Below, one piece after another: positions 50,908-63,734 of a stretch of 64,000 bases of DNA. Position 1 is the first letter of the stretch; each line of letters begins with the position of its first letter. The stretch spans positions 5,696,001-5,760,000 of the forward strand of contig OZ244999.1 of assembly GCA_965223265.1 (NCBI GenBank). The letters run 5' to 3'. The notes beneath the pieces were generated by a model that was not told the DNA's origin, searched no databases, and saw nothing but the letters and a program-made list of their open reading frames with translations. The position numbers were made by a program, and so were the translations under genes. Origin of the DNA: Planctomycetota bacterium. Its GTDB lineage: Bacteria > Planctomycetota > UBA8108 > SXIK01.

Positions 50908-51963
50908 ATGGTCAGGCTAAAGAATTTCTGGTACATCGCCGCACCGTCTGTCGAGCTCAAGCGTCGCCCGATTCGGCGCGTCGTCGAGGGCGAAACCGTG
51001 GCACTGTTTCGTGACACGCTGGGCAAATGTCACGCGCTGCGCGATCGCTGTGTGCATCGAGGTATGGCCCTTTCAGCAGGCCGGGTGGTTGGCAGCTGCA
51101 TCCAGTGCCCATATCACGGCTGGCAGTATGACAGCGACGGGCACATTCGCTCCGTGCCGGCTCTTTGCGACACTGAGGACCTTCCAACGGCGAGAACACG
51201 CTCGTTTCCGGTTCGCGAACAAGACGACCACATCTGGGTCTGGATCGGCGATGAAGAGCCGACCACACAACCCTTTCACTTTCCTCGCTACGGAGAGCAC
51301 GGCTGGTCCACCTTCTTCATGCAGACTCGTTTCAATGCGCCAGTCGAGCTGTGTCTCGAGAATTTCCTCGACGTACCGCACACACTCTTCGTCCACCCAG
51401 GCCTGTTCCGCAAAGACGAACTGAGGAACACCCGTGCCCAAGTGCGGACCTACAAAAACGGCGTCGAAGCGGAGTTCATGAATGAAGCGCCGCTGGAAGG
51501 CATTGGCCCACGGCTACTTTTTCCGCGCGGTACGAAGATGGAGCACACCGATCGCTTCATTCTGCCTTCGATCTCACGCGTAGACTATCGCTTCGGTGAT
51601 GCCTATCAGTTCATCATTTCGTCACAGTGCACACAGCGTGACGACGACGTCGTAGATGTCGTCACGGCGATCACCTGGCGACTCCCTCTGCCTGCAATTG
51701 CCGTTGGCCCATTCCTGCGCTGGTACTGCCGGCGTGTGATTCAGCAGGACGTCGAGACTCTGGAGATTCAAGGCGAGCAGTTGAGACGCTTCGGTCGCTG
51801 CGATCTTCACACCTCCGCCGACCTTCTTGGCCGGCAAATCTGCGAACTCCGACGCCAGGCGATAGAGGGATTGAACCAGCGAGTGGATGTCGACAACTCT
51901 GCGAGTGACGAGCGCCGAGCGCCGACACGCGAGTTCTGCAGAGAGATCGAACTTCGAATATAG
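50908..51963 (+). CDS. Rieske non-heme iron oxygenase alpha subunit (VanA/KshA-like)
   Basis: Rieske CVHRG and CPYHGW; mononuclear Fe motif ENFLDVPHTLFVH; C-terminal QD; AGGAG RBS. Confidence 0.92.
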   Translation: MVRLKNFWYIAAPSVELKRRPIRRVVEGETVALFRDTLGKCHALRDRCVHRGMALSAGRVVGSCIQCPYHGWQYDSDGHIRSVPALCDTEDLPTARTRSFPVREQDDHIWVWIGDEEPTTQPFHFPRYGEHGWSTFFMQTRFNAPVELCLENFLDVPHTLFVHPGLFRKDELRNTRAQVRTYKNGVEAEFMNEAPLEGIGPRLLFPRGTKMEHTDRFILPSISRVDYRFGDAYQFIISSQCTQRDDDVVDVVTAITWRLPLPAIAVGPFLRWYCRRVIQQDVETLEIQGEQLRRFGRCDLHTSADLLGRQICELRRQAIEGLNQRVDVDNSASDERRAPTREFCREIELRI

Positions 51964-51974
51964 CAAAACGAGGC

Positions 51975-52703
51975 ATGACGATGCTCCAAGGATCTGTGCA
52001 GCCGCGGCAATCCGTCTCTGATGACGACGTCGAACGCATGTATCGCCTCTTCTGCAATTACTACACACATGTAAGGCGAGACGTCTTCTATCGCGACTGG
52101 AAGGAGAAACATTGGGCACTCACGCTGCGCGACGAGTCAGGAGACCTTCGCGGCTTCACGACGCTCATGCTCTATGATCTCAAGGTTCTCGGAAAGCGTA
52201 TTCGTGCTGTCTTCAACGGCAACACCATCATCGACCGCGACTGCTGGGGAGAGCAGGAACTGGTGCGAACGTGGTGCACGTTCATGTCGACGCTCAAGAC
52301 GCAGCAGCCCGATCTCCCTCTCTACTGGTTTCTCATCTCCAGCGGCTACCGCACGTATCTTTTTCTGCCGCTCTTTTTCCGTGAGTTCTTTCCGCGCTAC
52401 GACCGAAGTACCCCGCCGCTCGAGCAGCACATCATCGACTCCCTGGGACGACTGAAATTTCCGGGGGAGTACCGTGACGGCATCGTACGTGTTTCCGAGC
52501 AGCGCGAGTGCTTTCGCTCAGACTTAGCGAAGCCATCGCCTGGACGCCTACGGAACGATCACGTCAAGTTCTTCGTGACCCAGAATCCAAACTTCGCACG
52601 AGGCGACGAATTGGTCTGCCTGACGGAGTTCTCCTTCGCCAACACGAAACGAATGGCCCATGAGAAACTCGCTGAGACGTTGATGGACAAAAACGTGAGT
52701 TAA
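51975..52703 (+). CDS. Hypothetical GNAT-like protein, GH3-operon associated
   Basis: F..D..EK..L....G.LRGFTT, VFNGNTIID..WG, YWFLISSGYRTY, RGDELVCL; fold assignment is inference. Confidence 0.7.
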   Translation: MTMLQGSVQPRQSVSDDDVERMYRLFCNYYTHVRRDVFYRDWKEKHWALTLRDESGDLRGFTTLMLYDLKVLGKRIRAVFNGNTIIDRDCWGEQELVRTWCTFMSTLKTQQPDLPLYWFLISSGYRTYLFLPLFFREFFPRYDRSTPPLEQHIIDSLGRLKFPGEYRDGIVRVSEQRECFRSDLAKPSPGRLRNDHVKFFVTQNPNFARGDELVCLTEFSFANTKRMAHEKLAETLMDKNVS

Positions 52704-52889
52704 CAGCCCGTTGAAACAGGGTTTCGTTCTCCGAACCGGCTCCCTCACGCTCAGCTCAGCTCGACCGCATCGGCACCCGCCATGTATGCCTTTTAGAAAA
52801 AGCTCGAAGATCACCCGCGCTTGCCACTGCTGCGGCGGATGCGAATGATCCGGTTATTCGACTAAAGCACTCTTTCGACAGGCCGTTAA
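52700..52889. mobile_element. Putative 190-bp MITE with imperfect terminal inverted repeats
   Basis: Left end TTAACAGCCCGTTGAAA; right end TTTCGACAGGCCGTTAA (reverse complement TTAACGGCCTGTCGAAA; 14/17 match); TTAA at both ends; no convincing ORF inside. Confidence 0.55.
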
Positions 52890-52908
52890 AAGCGTCTTCA
52901 AGCTACCA

Positions 52909-54411
52909 ATGATCACTCGCTGTCTCGGCAACGCTCTTTGGCTCCGGTCAAACCTCCGTCATGCAGCAGCATATCGCCGCGCCCTGAGCAATCCGCGTCG
53001 AGCTCAAGAAGAGATTCTCTTCGCTTTTCTCGAGCGCAACGCGACCTCAGCGTACGGGCGCCAATTTCGTTACGCCCAAATACGATCGGTGCACGATTTT
53101 CAGCAAGCCGTGCCAGTGGTCACCTACGACGACCTCGTGCCGTGGATCGATCGCATGCTGCACGGAGAGGAGAGAGTGCTGACGACGGAGGCTGTGCTCC
53201 GGTTCGAGAAGTCGAGTGGCTCAAATGGACCGGCGAAGTTCATTCCATACACCGAAACGCTGCTGCAGCAGTTCCGGGCTGCGATCGGCGCCTGGATCGA
53301 GGACATGTACCGTGCACGTCCGGGGCTCGCTTTCGGATCCCAGTATTGGTCCGTCTCGCCGATCGTGACCGAACGCGAGCACACACCTGGTGGCCATCCC
53401 ATCGGCATGGAGGACGACACTGAGTACTTCGCGCCGGCCGTTCGTCGTTGGCTCCGCTGGATCATGGCGGCCCCTGGAGCCCTCGCGGCCACGCAAGATG
53501 TCGGCGAACACCGGAGGCTCACGCTCGCTCACCTCATGCGCGCTCGCGACCTCCGGTTCATTTCGGTATGGAATCCAAGCTTCTTGACGCTACTCCTTGA
53601 GCAACTGCCGGCACCCGAGCTGGCGACGAAACTCTGGCCGCGGCTGCAGCTCATCAGCTGTTGGACGAGCGGCGCTGCAGCACGCGCAGTCGGCGACCTT
53701 GAGCGTCTCTTTCCGGACGTCGAGATTCAGGGCAAGGGACTCATGGCAACCGAGGGCGCCGTTTCGATTCCGCGCTTTCCGGACGCCTCATCGCCCTCTA
53801 CTCAAGTGACAATTCCCAGCCCTGCGCTGACGTCTCACTTCTTGGAGTTCATCGCCTCAGACGGCAGCGTTCACCTCGTGGGCGACCTCGACCCCGGAGA
53901 GACCTACCGCGTCGTCTTGACAGCGGGCAACGGATTCGCCCGCTACGACCTCGGCGACCGAGTTCGAGCCGCTCCACCACTGCCTGGCGAACGTGTCGCT
54001 CGCATCGAGTTCGTTGGCAGGGACAGCAACTTCACGGATCTGTGCGGAGAGAAGCTCAACGAGGTCTTCGTCGGAGACATCATCGAGGGCGTCGTTCAGC
54101 GGTTTGACGTCAACGGTATCGCCATGTTGGCCCCGGAGTGGGGCCAACCGCCTCACTATCTCCTCTTTGTCGACTCGCCCCAGGCTCCCACCATTGCAGC
54201 GGCAGTCGAAGATCGCCTCCGCACTTCGTTTCACTACGACTACTGCCGACGTTTGGGACAGCTCGGCCCCACCGAAGGGATTTACTGTCAGCGCGGCAAC
54301 GAAGCTTACCTCGGCGTGCGCGCTGCTCAAGGCATGCGCCTTGGCAACGTCAAGCCAACGTATCTTCGCCGCGAACTAGATTGGAGGAAACGGCTCGCAG
54401 CTCATGCGTGA
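52909..54411 (+). CDS. GH3 family acyl-adenylate/amide synthetase
   Basis: FQQAVPVVTYDD, FEKSSGSNGPAKFIP, ISVWNPSFL, QGKGLMATEG, HFLEF, ARYDLGDRV, F.GR...DLCGEKL. Confidence 0.9.
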   Translation: MITRCLGNALWLRSNLRHAAAYRRALSNPRRAQEEILFAFLERNATSAYGRQFRYAQIRSVHDFQQAVPVVTYDDLVPWIDRMLHGEERVLTTEAVLRFEKSSGSNGPAKFIPYTETLLQQFRAAIGAWIEDMYRARPGLAFGSQYWSVSPIVTEREHTPGGHPIGMEDDTEYFAPAVRRWLRWIMAAPGALAATQDVGEHRRLTLAHLMRARDLRFISVWNPSFLTLLLEQLPAPELATKLWPRLQLISCWTSGAAARAVGDLERLFPDVEIQGKGLMATEGAVSIPRFPDASSPSTQVTIPSPALTSHFLEFIASDGSVHLVGDLDPGETYRVVLTAGNGFARYDLGDRVRAAPPLPGERVARIEFVGRDSNFTDLCGEKLNEVFVGDIIEGVVQRFDVNGIAMLAPEWGQPPHYLLFVDSPQAPTIAAAVEDRLRTSFHYDYCRRLGQLGPTEGIYCQRGNEAYLGVRAAQGMRLGNVKPTYLRRELDWRKRLAAHA

Positions 54412-55615
54412 AGTCATAGAACGCACAAGGAAAGTTCGACGCGCACAGTTCTTCGATGAACGAAAGAGCCTCTTCCGGTCGCTCGATAGCCGGCCTGCAT
54501 TCTCGGATACGTCCGCGGCTACGTCCGCGGGTGCGATGCGCTTCGAACTGGCGACGCCAAGCGACGACGAAGCGCTTCGCGCGCTCCTTCGCGAAACTCC
54601 AATACCCGGTATGGCAGAAGTCGCGTTTTTGCGTGAGCCGAGCTACTTTCGCGCCGCAGCCGTGGCTGGCACCCACGTTCAAACGCTCGTCGCGCGCGCG
54701 GGCGGCCAAATCGCCGCGGTCAGTACGAGGGCCATTCGTCCAACTTTCATCAACGGCAGGCGCACCGACGCAGGTTACTTAGGAGACCTTCGCGTCCGGC
54801 CAGAGTTTCGCGGCACGACGCTGCTCGCGCGTGGCTACCGGTTCCTCCGCCGGCTTCATGACGACGGCCGCGCCCGACTCTACTCCACGATGATCATGGA
54901 AGGCAATCGCAACGCCCTGTCCACGATTGCGGCGAACCGCGCCGATCTGCCGTGCTACTCGGATCAAGGCCGCGTCTTCACCCCCATGCTGCACGTCCGG
55001 CGGTCTCGCAGAGTAAACCTGGCGAGATCCGAAACGCTCGAACGTGGTCGACCTGAGACTCTCGACGAGATCGTCGCGGCGCTGAACCGTGACCGTCTAC
55101 AGTTCGCTCCGGCGTATTCGCGCCATGACTTTCTCGGCGGCCGCTACGCCAACTTTTCTGTAGAGGACTTCTTTGTGCTGCGGCGCACCGGCCGCATCGT
55201 TGCCGTCGCGGGTCTATGGGACCAACGACCCGCACGCCAGACCGTAGTGACGCGATACTGCGGTGCGCTAAAGGCGCTCCGGCCACTGGTGAACTTACTG
55301 CGTCGTCCCAAGTTGCCGCAGCCACACACACCGTGGAACTATGCCTACGTCGCCTTTGCCTACAGCCGCGACACGGAAAGCTTTCGCAAAATTCTACGAT
55401 CCATCCATAACCACGTCGGCGGCGTTGGGCTCGAAGACGGGCGCTGCAGTGACATCGATTTCCTGATCATCGGTCTCCACGAAGATGATCCTCGCGCCGC
55501 CGTTCTCAGCGAATTTCGTACGACTCCATTCAGCGGTCGACTTTTCGCCGTGACTTTCGACGCCCCATTACCGTTCGATGGCCGCACCCCCTTCGTTGAG
55601 GCGGCTTTGCTATGA
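54404..55615 (+). CDS. GNAT-family acyltransferase-like protein
   Basis: REPSYF, GYLGDLRVRPEFRG, N..A..T, GLWDQR..RQ, GLHEDDP; start may be ATG 54536. Confidence 0.75.
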   Translation: MREVIERTRKVRRAQFFDERKSLFRSLDSRPAFSDTSAATSAGAMRFELATPSDDEALRALLRETPIPGMAEVAFLREPSYFRAAAVAGTHVQTLVARAGGQIAAVSTRAIRPTFINGRRTDAGYLGDLRVRPEFRGTTLLARGYRFLRRLHDDGRARLYSTMIMEGNRNALSTIAANRADLPCYSDQGRVFTPMLHVRRSRRVNLARSETLERGRPETLDEIVAALNRDRLQFAPAYSRHDFLGGRYANFSVEDFFVLRRTGRIVAVAGLWDQRPARQTVVTRYCGALKALRPLVNLLRRPKLPQPHTPWNYAYVAFAYSRDTESFRKILRSIHNHVGGVGLEDGRCSDIDFLIIGLHEDDPRAAVLSEFRTTPFSGRLFAVTFDAPLPFDGRTPFVEAALL

Positions 55616-56586
55616 AGGTACTTGACGATCGCTCCGATGTTCGAAGTCTTGTTTTCATCGCCGCGCTTCTTCTCTTGATCGGACTGCAGTGGTGTGGAGC
55701 GGCTCGAGACTCAGTTCTCTACGCCGCCACCCTTTGGCTCAGTTTTGTCGCCTGCATCGTCAATCACAATCACCAACACTGCGCGACGTTCTGTTCGGCG
55801 GTCGGAAATCGCCTCTTCGGCATTCTGTTGACTTTCTCAATCGGTCAGCCCGCGACGGCGATCGTTCCGATGCACAACCACAACCACCATCCGCACAACA
55901 ACTCGGCGCACGACTACGTGCGCGTCTCACAGGTCACCTATCGCTGGAATCTCCTCAATTTGCTTCTGTTTCCGTTCGTTGCGGTCAAGAACTATGCGGC
56001 CGTCAAATCTCAACAGATGCGGCAGTGGCGTCGACTCGACCCGCGCCTTTTCGCGCAACTGCGCTGGGAACGAACACTCTTCTACCCGACGCTGCTTCTT
56101 TTGGTGTTCGCTCGCCCGGTCGAAACCGTTCAGTTCTGCATCCTGCCTTATCTCTTCGGGCAGTGGAGCATCATCGCGATCAATCTCGTGCAACATGACG
56201 GCTGCGACGCCCAGTCCAGACATAACCACTCACGCAACTTCACCGGTCGGTGGCTCAACTGGTGGACACTCAACAACGGCTATCACACAGCACACCATAT
56301 GCGCCCACAGATGCACTGGAGCCGTCTGCCGACGCTTCACGCGGAGATCCAGGCGTCCATCCACCCTAAGCTGCGCCGAGGGTCGCTGCTGTGGACCCTC
56401 TTTCAATTCTATCTTTGGCCGGGTCGCCGCGCCCAGGTGGCGGAACTACGGCGCCCCGCTGTGCGACCCAGCTTGTCGGCAAGCGAAGCGGCGCCGGAGT
56501 GTGAGTCGATTCGGTTGGGCCAGAAGCAACAGCATCGGCGGCCAAGTTTGGAAACCGTGGGAAGTCAGGAGAGTCAAAACGCATGA
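55612..56586 (+). CDS. Membrane-bound fatty acid desaturase-family protein
   Basis: His boxes HNHQH, HNHNHHPH, NNGYHTAHH; NLVQHDG; WSRLP; ATGA coupling. Confidence 0.88.
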   Translation: MKVLDDRSDVRSLVFIAALLLLIGLQWCGAARDSVLYAATLWLSFVACIVNHNHQHCATFCSAVGNRLFGILLTFSIGQPATAIVPMHNHNHHPHNNSAHDYVRVSQVTYRWNLLNLLLFPFVAVKNYAAVKSQQMRQWRRLDPRLFAQLRWERTLFYPTLLLLVFARPVETVQFCILPYLFGQWSIIAINLVQHDGCDAQSRHNHSRNFTGRWLNWWTLNNGYHTAHHMRPQMHWSRLPTLHAEIQASIHPKLRRGSLLWTLFQFYLWPGRRAQVAELRRPAVRPSLSASEAAPECESIRLGQKQQHRRPSLETVGSQESQNA

Positions 56587-59500
56587 AACCGTTCTCCAAT
56601 CGAGCGCCGGCGAATTCAGCAACTACCGCGAAAGCTTCGGAGGTGTCGGAGCCACAACCCCCACAGCGCTGGCTGCGATGGTGGTTAGCAGCGGCCCTCT
56701 CGATCCTCGCTGCCATAGCGCTCCTGTTTTATCGCCACCAGAACATGTCAGCTGGTGTCGGCGGCCCCATCTCGCTTCCCAAGATACTCTGGCTTGCGTT
56801 CGCCGTTGGCACTTGGTTCGTCGTCCCCCCCTTTCTATGGCGCGACCGTCGCTTGAATCGTCCGACGCGTCAACTGTTCGGGTATTTTTGGATCGCCATG
56901 ATGGTGCGGGGCGTTCTCGAGATCATTCTCATTTACTTTTTCCACCACTGGACGCCCTGGTATGGCATCGCTCACGACCTCTTTTGCGTGCTACTGATCC
57001 TCGCACTACGTCGCCGTGTGCCGTCATCGGGTCCGGAGGCGACGAACGAAAGCCATCGAGCCCGCCGCTTCTCCTCGTCAATCGTTGTCGCACTCCTGGC
57101 CGAGACGGCGTTTGCGGCGATGTTTCTCCAGGCACAGGTGCACCATGAAGCGATCTACTTCGTCTCGTCCGCTTCGTCCTGGGGTTACGTCAACCTCACG
57201 ACCATCGCTGTACTCATGTTTCTGTACCCGGACCTGATCGCTATGCTGATCACGCTCTACTTTCCGGGTGTCTCCCGCGAGACTCCACGGGCGCTGAGGC
57301 TGGCAGGTGCCGTAGGTCGTTTCGCTACCGTGGTCCTGGTCGCTGCTGCCCTCTCCTTTTGGACGTGGATGCAGAGTGTCGAGCGAACCGCGCGGCAGTT
57401 TCAAGACGTCGGCTATCAAGTCGTCGACTCGTGTACACAATTCAAAGAAGACTTCGTGCTGGCCCGTCGAGATCGGATGGCAGACTTCATTGACTCGGGT
57501 GTAGCTACGTGGCGCCGTGTCTCGCGTCAGCACAACCATCCTTTCGAGATCCTCGAGTGGCAACCTGGGGGCGAAGAGGACCGACGCCCGCTCCTCGACG
57601 CGCTGCTCGAAATGCGCCACCGCTTCACCAGCCTGACGGCGGCGGCGTTCAAGATCCATCTCGTCGAGCGCTCCGATGACGAAGACGCCATCGTGCAGCT
57701 TCGTTTCGAGGTCAGTGGTGTCGAACGCAACCTTGCTGGGATCCCCGCGCTCCACGGCACTGACCGTGGACTACTTCGCTGCTCATTTCATCTCGGCGAC
57801 GATGGCCGTTGGCGGATCACGCAATCGTCGCTGCTCGAAGGGGTCTCTGTTCGCGGCAAGGCTCGTTCGTTTCGAGACGTCGCCGAAGAGCGTGGGGTCG
57901 CCTTCTTCATGGAACCAGACCGCCGCTTCCTTCCGGGGGAGAAATGCGACGCTCATCGCTGCGGCGACTATGGCAGACTCCACTTTCAAACCATGCGCCA
58001 CGCCTATGCAGGCTGCTCGACAGCCGACTACGACGGCGACGGGCATGACGACGTGCTTCTCTGTGCCGGAGGACGCTCCCGACTCTATCGAAACAAGGGA
58101 GACGGCACATTCCATGAGACCACGGCGCGAGCTGGCCTACCGGAGCTGTGGCACGTCAACACTGCCGGATTCGCTGATTTGGACAACGACGGCGACCAAG
58201 ACCTCTTCTTAGGTGCTTTCTACGGACAGAATCGTCTGTTCGAGAACATGGGTGGCGGAAGATTCAGGGAAGCAACAGAGCGCTCGAGTCTTGGTCGAGA
58301 CGACGCGGTCACGTGCTTTGCATTCTTCGACTACGACCGCGACGGCGATCTCGACCTTTACCTCGGCCGCTTCCTCGAAGCACGTCGCGAAATACCAGAT
58401 TCCTTTCTCTATGCCCGCAACGGCGAGCCCAATGTTCTCTACGAGAACGAAGGAGGGCTTCGGTTCCGCGACGTCACAAAGAAGGCCGGCGTGGGCGACC
58501 GAGGTTTAACCCTCAGTCTCGCAGCTGCTGACTATGACGAAGACGGCGACCAAGATCTCTATGTCGCAAACGACTTCGGCCGCAATCTCCTCTACGAGAA
58601 CCGCGGCGATGGTTCGTTCCAAGATGTGGCCAAACAACGCGGGGCGTTAGCCATTGGCGGCAGCATGAGCGCCAGTTGGGGCGACTATGACAACGATGGC
58701 AGACTCGATCTTTACGTCGCCGCGATTCGCTCCAACCAGCGCTGGTTTGTCCAGCCGATCACAGCACGGCGCGTCATCTTCAAATTCTTCCGCGAGGGGA
58801 AACTGGGAACGGACAACCCCGTACTCTCCGACCTCAGGAGCTACATGGGAAGAGACTGGGTCAACATCGGCAACCACGCTCTCGCGGGCAACTCGCTGCT
58901 TAGGCAAACGCCTGAGCACAACTTCACCGAGCAGGCTGAGCTGGCGCACGCTCGGCCCGCGGGTTGGTATTGGAGTTCCGGCTTCATAGACCTCGACCAT
59001 GACGGCGATCTTGACATCCTGGCGACGAACGGGTGGATCACGGGCAAGAAATCTCACGACTTGTGAGCTGAATTCAACACCGGTGCGGTCGCACCGGATC
59101 GCCCCTACAAGAGTGGCTACCTCTTCAGCGACGCCTTTCTGCGTGACTTCTCCTGGAACGGCAACGAGCGCAATCGTTTCCTTGTGAACATGGGCGAAGG
59201 CGTGTTCGTCGAGGCTGCGACTCCGTATGGACTCGATAGCATTCGCGACGCTCGAGGTCTCGCAGCGTCCGACTTCGATGGCGACGGAGATGTCGACTTG
59301 ATCGTCAATAACTACAACCGCCCAGCGCACTACTTCGCCAACGATGCGGCACGAGGCAACTGGCTACGCGTGCGCCTGCGGGGACGGACAAGCAATCGAG
59401 ACGGCATCGGAGCCACCGTGCGGGTTGAAACAGGAACGCACCGGCAAATGCGCGTCGTAACAGCGGGGAGCGGCTACGCATCGCAGTCTTCGCGGACGGT

Positions 59501-59669
59501 ACATTTCGGCCTTGGGACATACGACACCGTGGATCTCCTCGAAATCAAATGGCCGGGAGGCGATCGCGGCAGCGCAGTACGACAGAGTTTCAGGGACGTC
59601 AGTGTGAATCGGTTGCTGGTCATAGATGAACACGAGCATGAGCTATTCGCGATGGAGCCGTCACGGTGA
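56583..59669 (+). CDS. Membrane-anchored FG-GAP/CRTAC1 (ASPIC-UnbV) protein with in-frame TGA (probable selenocysteine at codon 828; 1028 aa)
   Basis: About 6-7 N-terminal TM segments; repeats DYDGDGHDD, DLDNDGDQDL, DYDRDGDLDL, DYDEDGDQDL, DYDNDGRLDL, DLDHDGDLDI. After TGA 59064-66 the frame stays open (AEFNTG..SWNGNERNRF..DFDGDGDVDL..SNRDGIGA..GSGYASQS..HFGLG..IKWP). The track ORFs 56583-59066 and 59184-59669 are in the same frame. Confidence 0.8.
59080..59097 (+). promoter_or_regulatory. Bacterial SECIS-like hairpin
   Basis: CCGGTGC-GGTC-GCACCGG: perfect 7-bp stem with a GGUC loop starting 21 nt after the UGA; resembles the E. coli fdhF SECIS upper stem (GGUUGC-AGGUCU-GCACC). Confidence 0.72.
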
Positions 59670-60697
59670 GGAGGGACGCAGTGATCAGTAGTCCAAGCGC
59701 ACTGCTCGAGAAGAACCCGGCCCGATTGCCGCTTCGAGAACTTCTCGATCAGGCTCGAGAGCACGCCAACTCGCCGAGGTCGTTGAACGTTGTTGCACCG
59801 ATCGCCACGGATCGATTCTTCATCTGCCCGACTGCGACACCGCTTTACTATACCTCACTCTACCGAAAGCTCTCCGAAGAGCAGGCGCGACGCTACAACC
59901 AGCTCACGGCGCTCTCTTTCAACGAGCTCATCATGGCCCTCGAAAGAAGCATCGCCCCAGTGCTTTTCGCCGCCCTACGCGGCGCAGCCTGGTTTCACCG
60001 TACCGATCCACCGTCCGAGCTTGTCGACTACTTCGAGTTCTTCGAAGCCGAAGAGCGTCGACACCTGCGTATGTGGCAGGCCCTGAACCAACTCGCCGAA
60101 CCCAAGTGGTATGAGGGCGAGAACGTCCATTTCTTCCAGACACGGACGCGCCCATCGTCAATGCTCCGAACACTCTGTTCGCGCCCCCACCTCGTTTCAA
60201 CAGTGCTTTGGATCATGCTCCTGCAGGAGGAGATGACGATGGAGTTAGCGCGCCGCTGTGCCAGAAGCTGTCTCGAACCACTCGAGCCTCGCTTCGGAGA
60301 GGCGTACCGCCTACACGTCGAAGATGAAGTTCGACATGTTCAGATTGACTGGTACGTGATTGAACACTTGCGTGCCGCGCAGAGCCCTCGGGTGCGCCGA
60401 TTGAACGCGAGGATAGTCCGATTCCTCGTGAAGACGTTCTTTCTGGCGCCACGTCGACTCGCTGTCAAGGTCGCCAAAGAGCTCGTCCGCGAGTTTCCGA
60501 GTCTACGGCCAAGCCTTTCACGGATGCAGAGGGAACTGAAGGGGCTCGGATCGGATCTTGAATACCAGCACATGATGTACTCGCGTCGAAGCCACCCTAT
60601 TTCGTTTCATTTGTTCGACTGCTACCCGGAATTTGAGGCCATGAGACACGTGCTCTTCTCCTACCAACCAGGTGAGTCTTCCCGTGCGCAGTCATAG
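59666..60697 (+). CDS. AurF/CmlI-like ferritin-fold diiron oxygenase
   Basis: TPLYYT..Y..L, FNELIMALE, EAEERRH, LLQEE, HVEDEVRHVQID; GTGA coupling. Confidence 0.82.
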   Translation: MRRDAVISSPSALLEKNPARLPLRELLDQAREHANSPRSLNVVAPIATDRFFICPTATPLYYTSLYRKLSEEQARRYNQLTALSFNELIMALERSIAPVLFAALRGAAWFHRTDPPSELVDYFEFFEAEERRHLRMWQALNQLAEPKWYEGENVHFFQTRTRPSSMLRTLCSRPHLVSTVLWIMLLQEEMTMELARRCARSCLEPLEPRFGEAYRLHVEDEVRHVQIDWYVIEHLRAAQSPRVRRLNARIVRFLVKTFFLAPRRLAVKVAKELVREFPSLRPSLSRMQRELKGLGSDLEYQHMMYSRRSHPISFHLFDCYPEFEAMRHVLFSYQPGESSRAQS

Positions 60698-61622
60698 CGG
60701 TGTGCCGTCAACATTTCCGATACCGACCGCGTGGAACGTGTCGATCATTATGGTGCAATGGCTTGCGTTCTTTGCATGCTGCTGGTGGGCTGCAAGGATC
60801 GAAACCTGGACGCAGACGCTTGGTCTGGCACTTGTGTTCGGCATTCTTGGCAACTCGATCTATTCCGTCCTTCATGAAGCGGAACACGGGATCCTTCTTC
60901 CGAACCGCCGCCTGAACGATCTCGCCGGTGTCATGATGGCGCTCCTCTTCCCGGCGCCGTTTCATCTGCTGCGGCAAGGACATCTCGGGCACCACCTCAG
61001 AAACCGCTCCGACGACGAAGCCTTCGACCTCGTCATCGAGGGCGAGCACCCCGTGTGGAAGCGCATTCAGTTTTACGGGATCATCACTGGTTTTTACTGG
61101 CTTGCCGTCGTGCTCGGCAACTTCGTAGCTCTCTTTGCGCCGACGCTATTGAGGTCTCAGTCGCTGCGGTTTGACAAAGCGACAGCGGCTCTACTCGATT
61201 CACTCAATCCACGCTATCTGCGCCTGATCCGCATCGAAGCATGTGCCGCGCTTGCCTTCCACACAAGTGTCGTATGGGCATTCGGCATCGCGCCAGCGAC
61301 CTACTTCTGCGTTTACTTCGGTTTCGGCTGGATGTGGTCCGCCATGCAATACGTACACCACTTCGGGACCGAACGCCACGTAGTGCGCGGCACTCGCAAT
61401 CTCTGGGTGTGGCGCCCGCTCGACGCCGTTTGGCTGCACCACAATCTGCATTTGAACCACCACGCCCACCCGACCGTTCCGTGGATTCACCTACCAAAGC
61501 TCAGCGAAGGCGCAGAAACGACACGAGGGTTTCTGCCGTGGTACTACCTCCGCATGTGGCGTGGCCCTCAGCCAACGGCGGAACACGTGGAGAACCGTTA
61601 TGCGGGACGGATCATTGACTGA
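60672..61622 (+). CDS. Membrane-bound fatty acid desaturase-family protein
   Basis: His boxes HEAEH, HLGHH, HHNLHLNHH; QYVHH; PTVPWIHLP. Confidence 0.88.
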   Translation: MSLPVRSHSGVPSTFPIPTAWNVSIIMVQWLAFFACCWWAARIETWTQTLGLALVFGILGNSIYSVLHEAEHGILLPNRRLNDLAGVMMALLFPAPFHLLRQGHLGHHLRNRSDDEAFDLVIEGEHPVWKRIQFYGIITGFYWLAVVLGNFVALFAPTLLRSQSLRFDKATAALLDSLNPRYLRLIRIEACAALAFHTSVVWAFGIAPATYFCVYFGFGWMWSAMQYVHHFGTERHVVRGTRNLWVWRPLDAVWLHHNLHLNHHAHPTVPWIHLPKLSEGAETTRGFLPWYYLRMWRGPQPTAEHVENRYAGRIID

Positions 61623-62355
61623 TCTAACGAATGATGCAGCGCAGAAGGTCTTAGGCGATTCGGTCGTCGGCCGGGAAGAGCCGACGCATGTAAAGCTGCA
61701 GCGGAAGGCCAACATAGGCACCGGGACAAAACTCTTCATGATCCTCACGGGCTACATTCCTCTCGCTCACGCCGTCTTCTGTGCGTTTCTGTTTGTCGCG
61801 GTCGTAGCCGCCGCTGGTCCAGCATGGGGAGTCGCGACGGCGCTCAGCGCATTGTACATAGCCCCGGCGCTTCTCGTGCGCTCGGTTCGTCGCGTTGCGG
61901 CAGTGCCCAACGGCCGATACGGCCCAGCGACGATCACATTTCGACTCTGGTGGTTCTGTGCGCAGTGCCAGCTTCTCTTCAATCGACTGCCGATCTTGGA
62001 GGAGTGCCTCCGCGTTGTCCCAGGTCTCTACTCCGCGTGGATCCGGCTTTGGGGCTCACGCGTGGGCTCGCTCGTCTACTGGGCACCAGGCGTCGTGGTG
62101 TTCGACCGACAGCTCTTGCGCATTGGGCATCGTGTCGCGTTCGGTGGCCGCGCCCACATAACGCCACACTACATGGCCAAAGACGACGACGGCTGCATCG
62201 AGCTCTGCATCGCACCGATCACCATAGGAGACGACGCCCTCGTTGGCGGCCTGTCGCTCGTTCCGGCCGGTGCGACCATTGAACCAGGTGGAGTGACTCG
62301 CGTTCGCGGCGTCGTCAAACCGTTCGAAGTCTACGGCAGGACGTCCGAAGTATGA
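61600..62355 (+). CDS. Membrane-associated acyltransferase-like protein (left-handed beta-helix)
   Basis: Two TM segments; LEECLRVVPGLYSAWIRLWGSRVG; IGHRVAFG, ITIGDDALVG, GATI hexapeptide-like motifs. Confidence 0.72.
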   Translation: MRDGSLTDLTNDAAQKVLGDSVVGREEPTHVKLQRKANIGTGTKLFMILTGYIPLAHAVFCAFLFVAVVAAAGPAWGVATALSALYIAPALLVRSVRRVAAVPNGRYGPATITFRLWWFCAQCQLLFNRLPILEECLRVVPGLYSAWIRLWGSRVGSLVYWAPGVVVFDRQLLRIGHRVAFGGRAHITPHYMAKDDDGCIELCIAPITIGDDALVGGLSLVPAGATIEPGGVTRVRGVVKPFEVYGRTSEV

Positions 62356-63119
62356 AATCGATCGGCAAACCACGGGCAGTCGAGGAAGGCGCCCGGAAGC
62401 GAAACCTCCTTGAACTCGTTTCGCGCGTGTGGCAGACGAAGCTAGCCCTCACCCTCGTTTTGCCGATTGCATTCTGCGTCTTCTACTTTCTGCTTCAGCA
62501 CCTCACCGAGATGCGAGTCACGACGTTCAAACTCACCAGCGTGGATCGCTGGATTCAGTTTCAACCGGAATGGATCTGGGTCTACCAGTCCGTCTATCTC
62601 GCGATGCCAATCGCACCGTGGCTTGCGGCCTCTAAGAGGGAGCTGAGGCGCTACGGAGAGGGTTTCGTGCTCCTGTCGCTGATCGGCTTCGGCATCTTCT
62701 CTCTCTATCCAGTCGCGGCCCCACGTCCCACGGACGTCCCGGCGCATGAAATGTACGCGCTATTGATCACTTACGACGGAATCGGCAACGCGTTTCCCTC
62801 TCTGCACTGTGCGTTGACATTTTACCATCTGCTGTTTGCGGAGCACACGACGACCACTCTGCTGTCACGGCGCGGACGACTGCTCTGGCGCGTCATAGGA
62901 GGCTTCTGGACCGCTGCGATCTGCTACTCGACGCTAGCAACGAAGCAGCACTATTTTGTCGACGTCGTAGCTGGTCTCGTGCTCGCTACGGCGGTGCACG
63001 CTGTTGTGTGGACGGAACGCACTAGGGCGACAAGCTTTCTCGCACTGCGGCGGCCAGCCGCTGTGCTGCACCCTACGGCGAGATCATGCACTCCAGCAAA
63101 CTCGCGAACCGACAACTGA
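62352..63119 (+). CDS. PAP2 superfamily membrane protein (Aur1/IPC-synthase-like)
   Basis: About 6 TM segments; YPVAAPRP, NAFPSLH, STLATKQHYFVDV; ATGA coupling. Confidence 0.85.
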   Translation: MKSIGKPRAVEEGARKRNLLELVSRVWQTKLALTLVLPIAFCVFYFLLQHLTEMRVTTFKLTSVDRWIQFQPEWIWVYQSVYLAMPIAPWLAASKRELRRYGEGFVLLSLIGFGIFSLYPVAAPRPTDVPAHEMYALLITYDGIGNAFPSLHCALTFYHLLFAEHTTTTLLSRRGRLLWRVIGGFWTAAICYSTLATKQHYFVDVVAGLVLATAVHAVVWTERTRATSFLALRRPAAVLHPTARSCTPANSRTDN

Positions 63120-63131
63120 AAGGAAGGTAAG

Positions 63132-63734
63132 ATGGATCGGATCAAATCAGGAAGTACTCTTCTCATCGGCGGCGCTCTATGCGCGACCTTCGCGTTCGCG
63201 ACCACTGTGAACGGTCAAGGCGACGAAGCCGAACACACAGCTCTTCGAGAACTCAAATCGATCTACGAAAAAGCTGTCAATGAAACACAGCTCGACTTAC
63301 TTGCCCCGCACTTGCACGCTAATTTCAGTGGGGTCATGGTCACAAACGACCCCGTAGCGAGCCAGAAAGACATCGAGGAGTACTGGCAATGGGTGTCGGG
63401 ACTCCTAGGCGACGGCGGCACGTATCGCGTCACACTCAATCCAGAGCGTAGCACTCTTCTCGGCAACTTTGCTCTGGCGAGAGGAACCGCAGACGAAGTC
63501 GCATCGATTCGCGGGAAGGAACTCAAGTTCCAGTCCAATTGGACCGCGCTTCTCGAGAAAGTCGATGGCGCCTGGAAGATCCTACGCGTTCACGGCTCCA
63601 TGAACCCAGTCGCGAATCCGTTTGCGAAAGCGAGCGCCAAGGCTGCGTCGTACACCAGCGGCGCTATCGGCGGTGGCATAGGGTTCGTTGTCGGGCTTTT
63701 GGTCATGTTGGTCACGCGCCGCAAGAAATCTTGA
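63132..63734 (+). CDS. Exported NTF2-like (DUF4440/SnoaL-type) protein with C-terminal TM anchor
   Basis: Signal peptide; FSGVMVT, ALARG, WTALLEKVDGAWKILRVHGSM; C-terminal TM segment plus RRKKS; AGGAAGG RBS. Confidence 0.8.
   Translation: MDRIKSGSTLLIGGALCATFAFATTVNGQGDEAEHTALRELKSIYEKAVNETQLDLLAPHLHANFSGVMVTNDPVASQKDIEEYWQWVSGLLGDGGTYRVTLNPERSTLLGNFALARGTADEVASIRGKELKFQSNWTALLEKVDGAWKILRVHGSMNPVANPFAKASAKAASYTSGAIGGGIGFVVGLLVMLVTRRKKS

Follow-up and report, generated by a model that had tools for sequence, protein, structure and literature searches.

Does the TGA at positions 59064-59066 of the window (the whole stretch of 64,000 nucleotides of planctomycete DNA that was analysed) end a gene, or is it a selenocysteine (Sec) codon inside a longer one? 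Automatic ORF calling gives two genes, one of 827 aa (56583..59066) that terminates at this TGA, and a separate downstream ORF (59184..59669) with a GTG start at 59184. The frame of the first ORF does however remain open to 59669, and with the TGA read as U there is a single open frame of 1028 residues, which ends at the TGA in 59667-59669. A preliminary description of this DNA had pointed to such a hidden selenoprotein, and its coordinates for the ORF, the TGA, the open frame and a downstream hairpin were all correct when we recomputed them; the peptide that it quoted was recovered around residue 828 of the long frame. The predicted selenoprotein gene (56583..59669, 1028 codons including Sec828, plus the terminal TGA) lies on the forward strand, as do all features of the window described here. 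Its start ATG overlaps, in an ATGA, with the stop of the gene before it, and its terminal TGA, in a GTGA, with the GTG at which the next gene starts, which we count as translational coupling. The upstream neighbour is a fatty-acid desaturase family protein (55612..56586) and the downstream one an AurF-like di-iron oxygenase family protein (59666..60697), whose start overlaps the selenoprotein stop; both are syntenic at orthologous loci.

A bacterial Sec codon needs a SECIS element, and the candidate here is a hairpin at 59080..59097 with a 7-bp stem (59080-59086/59091-59097) and a GGUC loop (59087-59090), which the preliminary description compared with the SECIS of E. coli fdhF; our own control is an FdhA-type gene of the same genome (see below). 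The stem starts 13 nt and the loop 20 nt after the UGA. The bSECIS consensus, as given in a 2026 catalogue of prokaryotic selenoproteins (PMC13188914), has an apical loop of 3-9 nt with a G among its first two nucleotides, an upper stem of 4-16 bp, a distance from UGA to loop of 16-37 nt, and an MFE <= -7.5 kcal/mol. The hairpin of the window agrees with each of these published constraints (4-nt loop, 7-bp stem, 20 nt, -12.6 kcal/mol). A strict implementation of the same published rules passes 23 of 54 TGA forms of the gene and 1 of 25 non-TGA forms. A descriptor that asks for a GU within the apical loop, a loop start 18-27 nt from the UGA (counted from its first base) and four or more base pairs in the stem finds a hairpin in 50/53 and 9/25, respectively.

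Folded alone, the 62-nt stretch is unremarkable against its shuffles (z = -1.04, with 31 of 200 shuffles as good or better), and the hairpin is significant only via related sequences. Covariation across orthologs, which the preliminary description had proposed as a check, is indeed found. In 30 distinct sequences, 78.8% of the cells of the helix can pair, compared with 20-51% when the partners are slid, 5 of the 8 pairs change on both sides, and the covariation score of 0.391 (shuffled mean 0.175) was reached by 0/500 shuffles. Folding energy does not separate TGA from non-TGA forms (median MFE -10.0 vs -9.6 kcal/mol, one-sided p = 0.19), and only 6 of 53 TGA forms beat 95% of their synonymous recodings on energy; judged by the hairpin descriptor, 9 of 53 do. 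The peptide after Sec largely encodes the palindrome, and selection on the RNA and on the protein are thus confounded.

The host genome has what is required to use such an element. As the preliminary description would have it, tRNA-Sec (70.3 bits, anticodon tca), selA (548 bits), selB (324 bits) and selD (309 bits) are all present, each above its curated cut-off. The presence of selA is in itself non-discriminating, being found in 58/61 relatives, in 3/4 genomes with TGA forms and in 4/5 with non-TGA forms. A positive control is offered by an FdhA-type gene in the same genome (G000:C1:8400141), with one in-frame TGA in the context ...CSRA-U-HAP... and a hairpin of a 6-bp stem with a GGUCU loop 18 nt past the TGA. 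Both genes thus have a UGA and then a short intra-coding hairpin with a small loop beginning GGU, and the loops and spacings (GGUCU at 18 nt, GGUC at 20 nt) both fit the bSECIS consensus of PMC13188914. The proteins are unrelated, the FdhA-type one being a molybdopterin oxidoreductase with the family motif U-H-x-P, as Table 1 of the catalogue has it (PMC13188914). A covariance model built from the hairpins of one clade missed those of the FdhA-type gene, of a paralog of the window gene and of another subfamily. In the mechanism that we propose, the hairpin would recruit SelB with Sec-tRNA(Sec) and Sec would be inserted at UGA 59064-59066, while ribosomes that do not recode would release an 827-residue product without the C-terminal UnbV_ASPIC domain.

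The residues found at the Sec position in relatives bear on what is inserted. Three proteins (P0034, P0050 and P0059) and the loci L116-L119 have Cys. These Cys homologs are 41-51% identical to the window protein, have the propeller and UnbV_ASPIC in common with it and share the context Asp-Leu-[Cys/Sec]-Leu-Asp-Phe, but they lack its seven-helix N-terminal domain, and they have TGC and no qualifying hairpin 3' of the codon where the window gene has TGA and a hairpin. L113-115 (TGA) and L116-119 (TGC) form a Sec/Cys pair with matching architecture, in which 580/579 residues precede and 240 follow the codon, and are separated by tree branches of 0.001-0.035. UGA conserved in orthologs together with Cys in some homologs, the pattern by which bacterial selenoproteins are recognised, is what this family displays. 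Cys is by no means general, and the 36 non-Sec rows of the alignment have Glu (10), Ser (9), Ala (7), Trp (5), Cys (2) and for the remainder other residues; in a single derived clade the residue is Ser, Ala, Gly, Glu or Val, in other groups Glu or Trp. The statement in the preliminary description that homologs carry Cys is thus partly right: it holds for those full-length homologs that are nearest and for one sister group, while Glu, Ser, Ala, Gly, Val or Trp is found in the more distant ones. As the position is not Cys family-wide, a universal catalytic role for the CRTAC1/UnbV family does not follow.

It could be argued that the UGA is read through without Sec, by a near-cognate tRNA (e.g. 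for Trp or Cys) and with the hairpin as a stimulator, so that an ordinary residue is inserted. Downstream hairpins can stimulate readthrough in other systems, and a distant subgroup aligns Trp (TGG, 5 rows) here. Those rows are however the most distant in the tree and the alignment at this column is uncertain in them, while the nearest non-TGA relatives have Cys, not Trp. The hairpin, moreover, fits the SelB-type consensus with a G first in a small loop and at the correct spacing, it resembles that of the FdhA-type selenoprotein gene of the same genome, and the full Sec machinery is present, all of which makes readthrough of this kind improbable.

Still less probable, in our opinion, is that the TGA is a true stop, and that a conserved gene split yields two products, a propeller protein of 827 residues and, restarting at GTG 59184, a separate C-terminal one of ~161 residues. 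Gene callers give exactly these two ORFs, some translation events surely terminate at the UGA, and short forms are frequent in databases: of the best 120 matches, 56 lack UnbV_ASPIC and span just 59-63% of the query region. Yet the 46 ortholog proteins that we aligned (45 of these 56 and the ORF of the window itself) all terminate at an invariant D826-L827, and in a tblastn search against 164 loci every stop at the aligned codon was TGA, in 53-54 distinct sequences once duplicates were removed, with neither TAA nor TAG among them. These sequences fall into at least four subfamilies with 30-75% identity, and were seen in Planctomycetota, Acidobacteriota, one Akkermansiaceae genome, and marine and soil metagenomes; a second paralog in the genome of the window also has TGA at the equivalent site and an 8-bp GGUC hairpin. 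The homologous frame is open for 185-244 codons past the TGA in 20/20 loci checked. The 39 codons from the UGA to the first in-frame start codon (59067..59183) would be untranslated if there were two genes, but they have 67-85% amino-acid identity in 9 of 9 orthologs, with substitutions mostly in the third position (e.g. 5/3/25 at codon positions 1/2/3), and they match contiguous sequence in unsplit relatives. Judged by these substitutions, the sequence 3' of the TGA is under purifying selection. A split would also cut the propeller ahead of its last blades, and the sister group with otherwise identical architecture has TGC. In a tree of 89 fragments, 34 Sec and 2 Cys forms make up a single clade, and the Sec label needs 6 changes against a mean of 28.6 for shuffled labels. 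In all the counts given here the sequences share ancestry, so that p-values overstate the evidence. The orthologs are hence not a series of gene pairs lacking a hairpin, an outcome that the preliminary description had held against itself; TGA, open frame and hairpin are all conserved.

A pseudogene, or a TGA that arose from faulty sequencing or assembly, has nothing in its favour but the in-frame stop itself and can be dismissed. Dozens of assemblies that are independent of one another, and come from various phyla and habitats, have the TGA, and the sequence past it is under purifying selection. Contigs from 4 public runs (2 samples, 1 study), although possibly the source of this genome, carry TGA at 59064-59066 with 0 differences over 58900-59300, and not the TGG or TGC that the preliminary description had named as refuting. 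We therefore regard it as very likely, from comparative sequence data, that 56583-59669 is a single gene for a 1028-residue selenoprotein in which UGA 59064-59066 is decoded as Sec. The proposal of such a protein, with a bacterial SECIS directly following the UGA, withstood every refuting condition that the preliminary description had named, and has support from the Sec machinery, from the conserved TGA, frame and hairpin, and from the Cys relatives.

The protein has a β-propeller and a C-terminal domain that the two-gene reading separates. A Pfam search gave FG-GAP_3 (PF13517, 180.1 bits over 6 stretches), PF01839 (68.8 bits) and, past the TGA, UnbV_ASPIC (PF07593, 66.5 bits with a cut-off of 23.4), and an FG-GAP propeller followed by UnbV_ASPIC places it among the CRTAC1-like FG-GAP/UnbV_ASPIC proteins. 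In the AlphaFold model the N-terminal domain (residues 29-292, 56667..57458) consists of seven long helices, presumably membrane-spanning; it is ortholog-specific by alignment, and its Pfam matches are weak and all below cut-off. An alpha+beta linker domain (residues 296-432, 57468..57878) is seen in the AlphaFold model only and belongs to no Pfam family. The FG-GAP propeller (about residues 470-930, 57990..59372) is supported by Pfam, the AlphaFold model and a structural match, and the UnbV_ASPIC domain (residues 941-1012, 59403..59618) is wholly encoded 3' of the UGA. The best structural match is murine CRTAC1 (9etn_A; Foldseek E 1e-24, TM-score 0.71 on target, 18% identity), and a comparison with PDB sequences likewise matched 9etn alone (E 1e-21). 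Cartilage acidic protein 1 (CRTAC1; PDB 9etn) and bacterial ASPIC/UnbV proteins have the same domain order as the window protein, which differs from CRTAC1 in an insert with Sec between late blades and in the extra seven-helix and alpha+beta domains. The CRTAC1 alignment is loose around Sec, and the equivalent CRTAC1 residue is not fixed by pairwise alignment.

Sec828, in the conserved motif Asp-Leu-Sec-x-x-Phe, is within an insert of ~48 residues (817-864) that separates two late propeller blades and in the model is probably a mobile loop. As pLDDT is below 50 at 820-827, 834-840 and 854-860, the location of Sec relative to any site is not assignable from the model. No conserved partner Cys for Sec was found, nor any Cys inside the motif, and Pfam recognised no cofactor-binding domain near Sec. 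The paralog in the genome has a lipoprotein-like signal at its N-terminus, while proteins of the Sec/Cys sister group start with a signal-like stretch and have a hydrophobic anchor at the C-terminus. On these grounds the propeller is probably periplasm-facing. The conserved operon encodes two desaturases, the AurF-like oxygenase, a Rieske oxygenase and a GH3 acyl-adenylate-forming enzyme (GH3-type ligase), and its richness in O2-dependent di-iron enzymes points to a lipid/acyl-derived pathway intermediate, or peroxide by-products, as the substrate of Sec. It is conceivable, if rather doubtful, that Sec is a lone nucleophilic or redox centre, or a soft-metal ligand, in a mobile loop over the propeller, with a lipid/acyl intermediate or peroxide as substrate.

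Human CRTAC1 belongs to the CRTAC1/UnbV family, as do the UnbV proteins encoded in enediyne gene clusters, and we know of no catalytic activity for either CRTAC1 or UnbV. Bacterial selenoproteins are mostly thioredoxin-like or metal-cofactor oxidoreductases. Table 1 of the 2026 catalogue comprises 119 prokaryotic selenoprotein families and subfamilies (PMC13188914), most of which are thioredoxin-like or have UxxC/CxxU motifs. Like the window protein, they combine one Sec with a bacterial SECIS and have homologs with Cys, but among the 119 families of that table (PMC13188914) there is no FG-GAP, VCBS, UnbV_ASPIC or propeller entry. P0001 has no match at E <= 0.01 in NCBIfam, where many models define catalogued families, and no FG-GAP or UnbV selenoprotein was found in the full-text literature searched.

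Sec is costly, and that Sec or Cys has repeatedly been kept by selection at one loop position flags this position as functionally critical. On balance we lean towards an unrecognised, environmentally widespread and probably extracytoplasmic selenoprotein family, in which the Sec/Cys loop of a CRTAC1/ASPIC-UnbV propeller marks a new active site that may act on lipid/acyl intermediates. Dozens of database entries end early at the Sec codon, and annotation and selenoproteome surveys miss the family. Sec in a Ca-binding-type β-propeller, without CxxU/UxxC and probably periplasmic, would broaden the range of selenium-using folds, and the conserved operon gives the selenoprotein a testable pathway link. 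It would be the first sign of a reactive selenium or sulfur residue in the CRTAC1/ASPIC-UnbV family and, if true, the first chemical handle on a family without an assigned activity.

The gene lies in a single contig of 9.18 Mb, and the closest named relative of the organism is a Planctomycetota MAG. On the forward strand, the frame that opens at 56583 encodes 827 amino acids up to a TGA at 59064-59066, and when this TGA is read as selenocysteine (U) no other stop is met until the TGA at 59667-59669, which gives 1028 residues with U at position 828 (...NGWITGKKSHDL-U-AEFNTGAVAP...). The preliminary description saw a single gene split within one frame and an ASPIC/UnbV C-terminus behind the split, and the Pfam assignments agree with this: FG-GAP_3 matches six stretches of the protein, and UnbV_ASPIC matches residues 941-1012 (66.5 bits against a cut-off of 23.4), entirely past the TGA.

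The TGA is conserved at the DNA level. Four of 61 genomes (the window's own and 60 relatives) had a strong match, the window's own included, each with exactly one TGA inside. When residues 740-930 were compared by tblastn with the collected loci, 80 from genomes and 80 from metagenomes, a stop at the codon aligned to residue 828 was a TGA wherever a stop stood there; in ten loci no HSP reached across the site, and in two seeming exceptions, L161 and L165, the TGA lies one residue over. With identical sequences counted once, and L026 left out as the same sequence as L023, 53 rows have the stop in a single alignment column, and in the 36 rows without Sec that column is Glu in 10, Ser in 9, Ala in 7, Trp in 5, Cys in 2 and another residue in the remainder. 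The TGA forms comprise several diverged subfamilies, in which U is followed by A-E-F-N (the orthologs), L-D-F-A, L-P-Y/F-I or S-F-F-W-R-Q-V-V. A pair with Sec and Cys is also found, L113-115 with TGA and L116-119 with TGC, alike in architecture, with 580 and 579 residues upstream and 240 downstream.

The genome itself holds a paralog of 763 amino acids on the reverse strand (G000:C1:3157218; L188:2123-4411), with FG-GAP_3 in six stretches, UnbV_ASPIC and a lipoprotein-like N-terminus. It has a TGA at the homologous Asp-Leu-x position and an 8-bp hairpin with a GGUC loop, and its sequence after the Sec codon, P-T-F-L-E-N-V, is unlike that of the window gene and resembles that of locus L025. Five metagenome loci (L123, L126, L130, L131 and L132) each hold two FG-GAP/UnbV genes, about 2.4-2.6 kb apart and in different frames, and as both have their own TGA at the homologous site and their own GGUC hairpin, they are tandem paralogous selenoprotein genes. 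In a scan of the genome contigs with the whole protein, matches to a generic FG-GAP pattern drowned out the rest and L026 was the one true ortholog obtained; none of the 63 pattern matches in a metagenome scan with the N-terminal 470 residues was confirmed.

Behind the codon stands the hairpin that the preliminary description placed at 59080-59097, and it is found there on the forward strand with arms at 59080-59086 and 59091-59097, seven base pairs and a GGUC loop at 59087-59090. Judged from this one sequence the fold is ordinary (z = -1.04; 31 of 200 shuffles fold as well or better), so that the argument depends on comparing related sequences. Folding of the 75 nt past the codon gave a small hairpin at near-constant distance in the TGA forms. 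A descriptor asking for an apical loop with GU in it, beginning 18-27 nt from the first UGA base and resting on four or more pairs, matched 50 of the 53 distinct TGA forms versus 9 of the 25 forms without TGA (Fisher p = 7e-8, related sequences not being independent). The loop is GGUC in 28 of the TGA forms and GGUCG in nine, and L113-115, the three forms outside the descriptor, carry a hairpin of 6 bp whose loop is UGGAU or UGGAC. The hairpin also covaries: for 31 sequences (30 of them distinct) aligned without gaps, with the structure taken from one of them, which favours that structure, the covariation score was 0.391 against a shuffled mean of 0.175 and was matched by none of 500 shuffles. 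In the helix of eight pairs 78.8% of the cells are paired, versus 20-51% with the partners slid, and both sides change in five of the eight.

The published bSECIS consensus (PMC13188914) has a loop of 3-9 nt, an upper stem of 4-16 bp, a G in the first two loop positions, a spacing of 16-37 nt and an MFE of -7.5 kcal/mol or lower, and the window hairpin agrees with it throughout (4 nt, 7 bp, GG first, 20 nt, -12.6 kcal/mol). Our strict implementation, an approximation of bSECISearch that accepts only perfect stems and scores nothing but the hairpin, was passed by 23 of 54 TGA forms versus 1 of 25 non-TGA forms. Generic folding energy did not discriminate (median MFE -10.0 kcal/mol for TGA forms versus -9.6, one-sided p = 0.19; z-scores against synonymous recodings, p = 0.10); these GC-rich coding sequences fold anyway. 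Synonymous recoding as a control on the descriptor gave values of 0.05 or lower in 9 of 53 TGA and 3 of 25 non-TGA forms, and cannot part RNA-level from protein-level constraint, since the conserved peptide after Sec encodes the palindrome. Trained on 21 hairpins from a single clade, a covariance model found only the window hairpin in 335,720 bases (27 bits, E 0.0004) and had no match there at the formate-dehydrogenase-type gene described below, the paralog or the other subfamily; it did not transfer because it is too short and too sequence-specific. An Rfam scan of 58900-59300 (E up to 10) gave a single chance match, to a snoRNA, and no family of relevance.

The machinery to read such a codon is present in the genome, where selA (548 bits), selB (324 bits), selD (309 bits) and tRNA-Sec (70.3 bits; anticodon tca by ARAGORN), all four proposed for checking beforehand, score above their curated cut-offs. 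The selD match (G000:C1:3460739-3461653, forward strand) lies inside an open frame of 790 amino acids, and as this far exceeds plain SelD (the profile has only 311 positions) the frame suggests a fusion protein. Co-occurrence with selA does not inform, because selA is nearly universal in the genomes sampled. A genome scan for a TGA followed by a GGU-loop hairpin, with frames open on both sides, gave 220 candidates, mostly noise, but among them is a gene for an NAD-linked, FdhA-type molybdopterin oxidoreductase (G000:C1:8399739-8401184, forward strand) with one in-frame TGA in the context CSRA-U-HAP. Its hairpin, of 6 bp with a GGUCU loop 18 nt from the codon, is much like that of the window gene. 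This gene served as the positive control for Sec decoding: in a classical family, then, the organism reads UGA as Sec. A further candidate codon at G000:C1:3487289 (forward strand; ...AVAVDDG-U-NFDCYLVEV...) has frames open for 84 codons upstream and 142 downstream and a 9-bp hairpin with a GGUCG loop.

We infer that Sec is very probably inserted at residue 828 in a SelB-dependent manner. Readthrough of the UGA with some other amino acid is contradicted by the data on the hairpin and the machinery, and we consider it very unlikely. A true stop between two genes would be the plain reading of the ORF as annotated, and it would leave untranslated the 39 codons from the TGA to the first in-frame start. 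These codons have 67-85% amino-acid identity in nine orthologs, with differences mostly in third positions (e.g. 5/3/25), the frame is open for 185-244 codons past the site in all 20 loci examined, and the full gene overlaps with neighbouring genes at its start (ATGA) and at its terminal stop (GTGA), in keeping with translation running through to 59669; a pair of genes is contradicted by the data and seems highly improbable. A pseudogene or a sequencing error is contradicted by the same TGA in other genomes and is hardly conceivable. Of the public runs listed as containing the sequence of the site, four are DNA runs of one study, which may be the source of this genome, and none is RNA.

Sec insertion at this site is also consistent with the phylogeny. 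In a maximum-likelihood tree of 89 distinct fragments (quick search, unrooted, several long branches meeting), the window falls inside a starred clade of 10 Sec forms, within a clade of 34 Sec and 2 Cys forms; the S-F-F-W subfamily comprises 17 Sec forms together with 18 non-Sec forms (Ser, Ala, Gly, Glu, Val), which make up one derived clade, also starred. Six changes of the Sec label are needed on the tree, versus a mean of 28.6 for shuffled labels, so that the TGA must have persisted along long branches; row L161_2 is mislabelled 'other:V' despite a TGA one residue away. The column turned variable where the TGA was lost without Cys in its place.

When residues 480-1028 were searched against a collection of 5.8 billion proteins, 56 of the best 120 matches were without UnbV_ASPIC; these are 53-100% identical and span only 59-63% of the query region. 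Forty-five of these, aligned with the ORF of the window, all end at the invariant D826-L827 (46 of 46), and among the best 120 matches the close orthologs are all stored as truncated proteins, two of them named VCBS repeat-containing protein by NCBI. The suggestion in the preliminary description that homologs carry Cys at this position holds for the nearest full-length ones (P0034, P0050 and P0059, 41-43% identity overall, context DLCLDFA) and fails for more distant ones, where the residue is Glu, Gly or Leu. Common to the orthologs is a C-x-x-H-x-C motif directly before the first propeller blade (57936-57959, about residues 452-459), of which C455 is at least 90% conserved in the 46-sequence alignment; the segment is absent from the Cys-containing and the more distant homologs.

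In the AlphaFold2 model (24-row alignment, mean pLDDT 82.3, pTM 0.77), seven long helices (29-292) are followed by an alpha+beta domain (296-432), then by the propeller and lastly by a beta domain at the C-terminus. Confidence is low across residues 820-860 (pLDDT below 50 at 820-827, 834-840 and 854-860), which would place Sec in a poorly defined, partly helical insert. Among PDB structures Foldseek ranks murine CRTAC1 first (9etn_A, E 1e-24, TM-score 0.71 on the target), ahead of propellers of the FG-GAP type, among them aldos-2-ulose dehydratase and rhamnogalacturonan lyase (E about 1e-7). 9etn is also the sole PDB sequence match, but the alignment is too loose around Sec to name an equivalent residue. 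No partner Cys is conserved with Sec in the 190-residue neighbourhood. A Cys at one of columns 865/866 is found in 22 of 53 Sec fragments versus 0 of 36 non-Sec ones, and in some subfamilies it might serve as a resolving Cys; in the window gene the two columns are Arg-Phe. Judged from signal- or anchor-like termini in relatives and the helix count, the protein is probably extracytoplasmic.

The gene belongs to a series of ORFs on one strand that overlap or follow each other closely (50908-63734, forward strand), in the order Rieske/VanA-like oxygenase, a 242-aa protein, GH3-family enzyme, a 403-aa protein, fatty-acid desaturase, the selenoprotein, AurF-like di-iron oxygenase, a second fatty-acid desaturase, a 264-aa protein, PAP2 phosphatase and SnoaL-like protein; the three named by length have no Pfam family. 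This order is kept in three ortholog loci, L023 and L024 (403-aa protein to second desaturase) and L026 (GH3 to PAP2), of which L023 and L026 are the same sequence, and partly in L107-109, with the 242-aa protein, GH3 and the 403-aa protein directly upstream. We speculate, as a tentative and rather doubtful proposal, that Sec could be a lone nucleophile, a redox centre or a soft-metal ligand on a mobile loop, and that its substrates could be lipid or acyl intermediates, or else peroxides, to which the operon's di-iron enzymes give rise.

Table 1 of PMC13188914 (2026) has no FG-GAP, VCBS, UnbV, ASPIC or propeller entry among 119 prokaryotic selenoprotein families, and term searches gave none of these names in PMC9312934, PMC2398784 and PMC5029168; in PMC4807772 only 'selenoprotein' matched, and its supplementary table S9, of planctomycete selenoprotein candidates, could include the family. 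NCBIfam release 20 has no match for the protein. In the full texts searched, no link of selenocysteine or selenoproteins with FG-GAP, UnbV, ASPIC, VCBS, CRTAC1 or bacterial propellers was found. We rate it as a new bacterial selenoprotein family with a standard recoding mechanism, of which an earlier mention in supplementary tables is possible, and with no redox motif, its CRTAC1-like fold and its probable location it is unusual for a selenoprotein.
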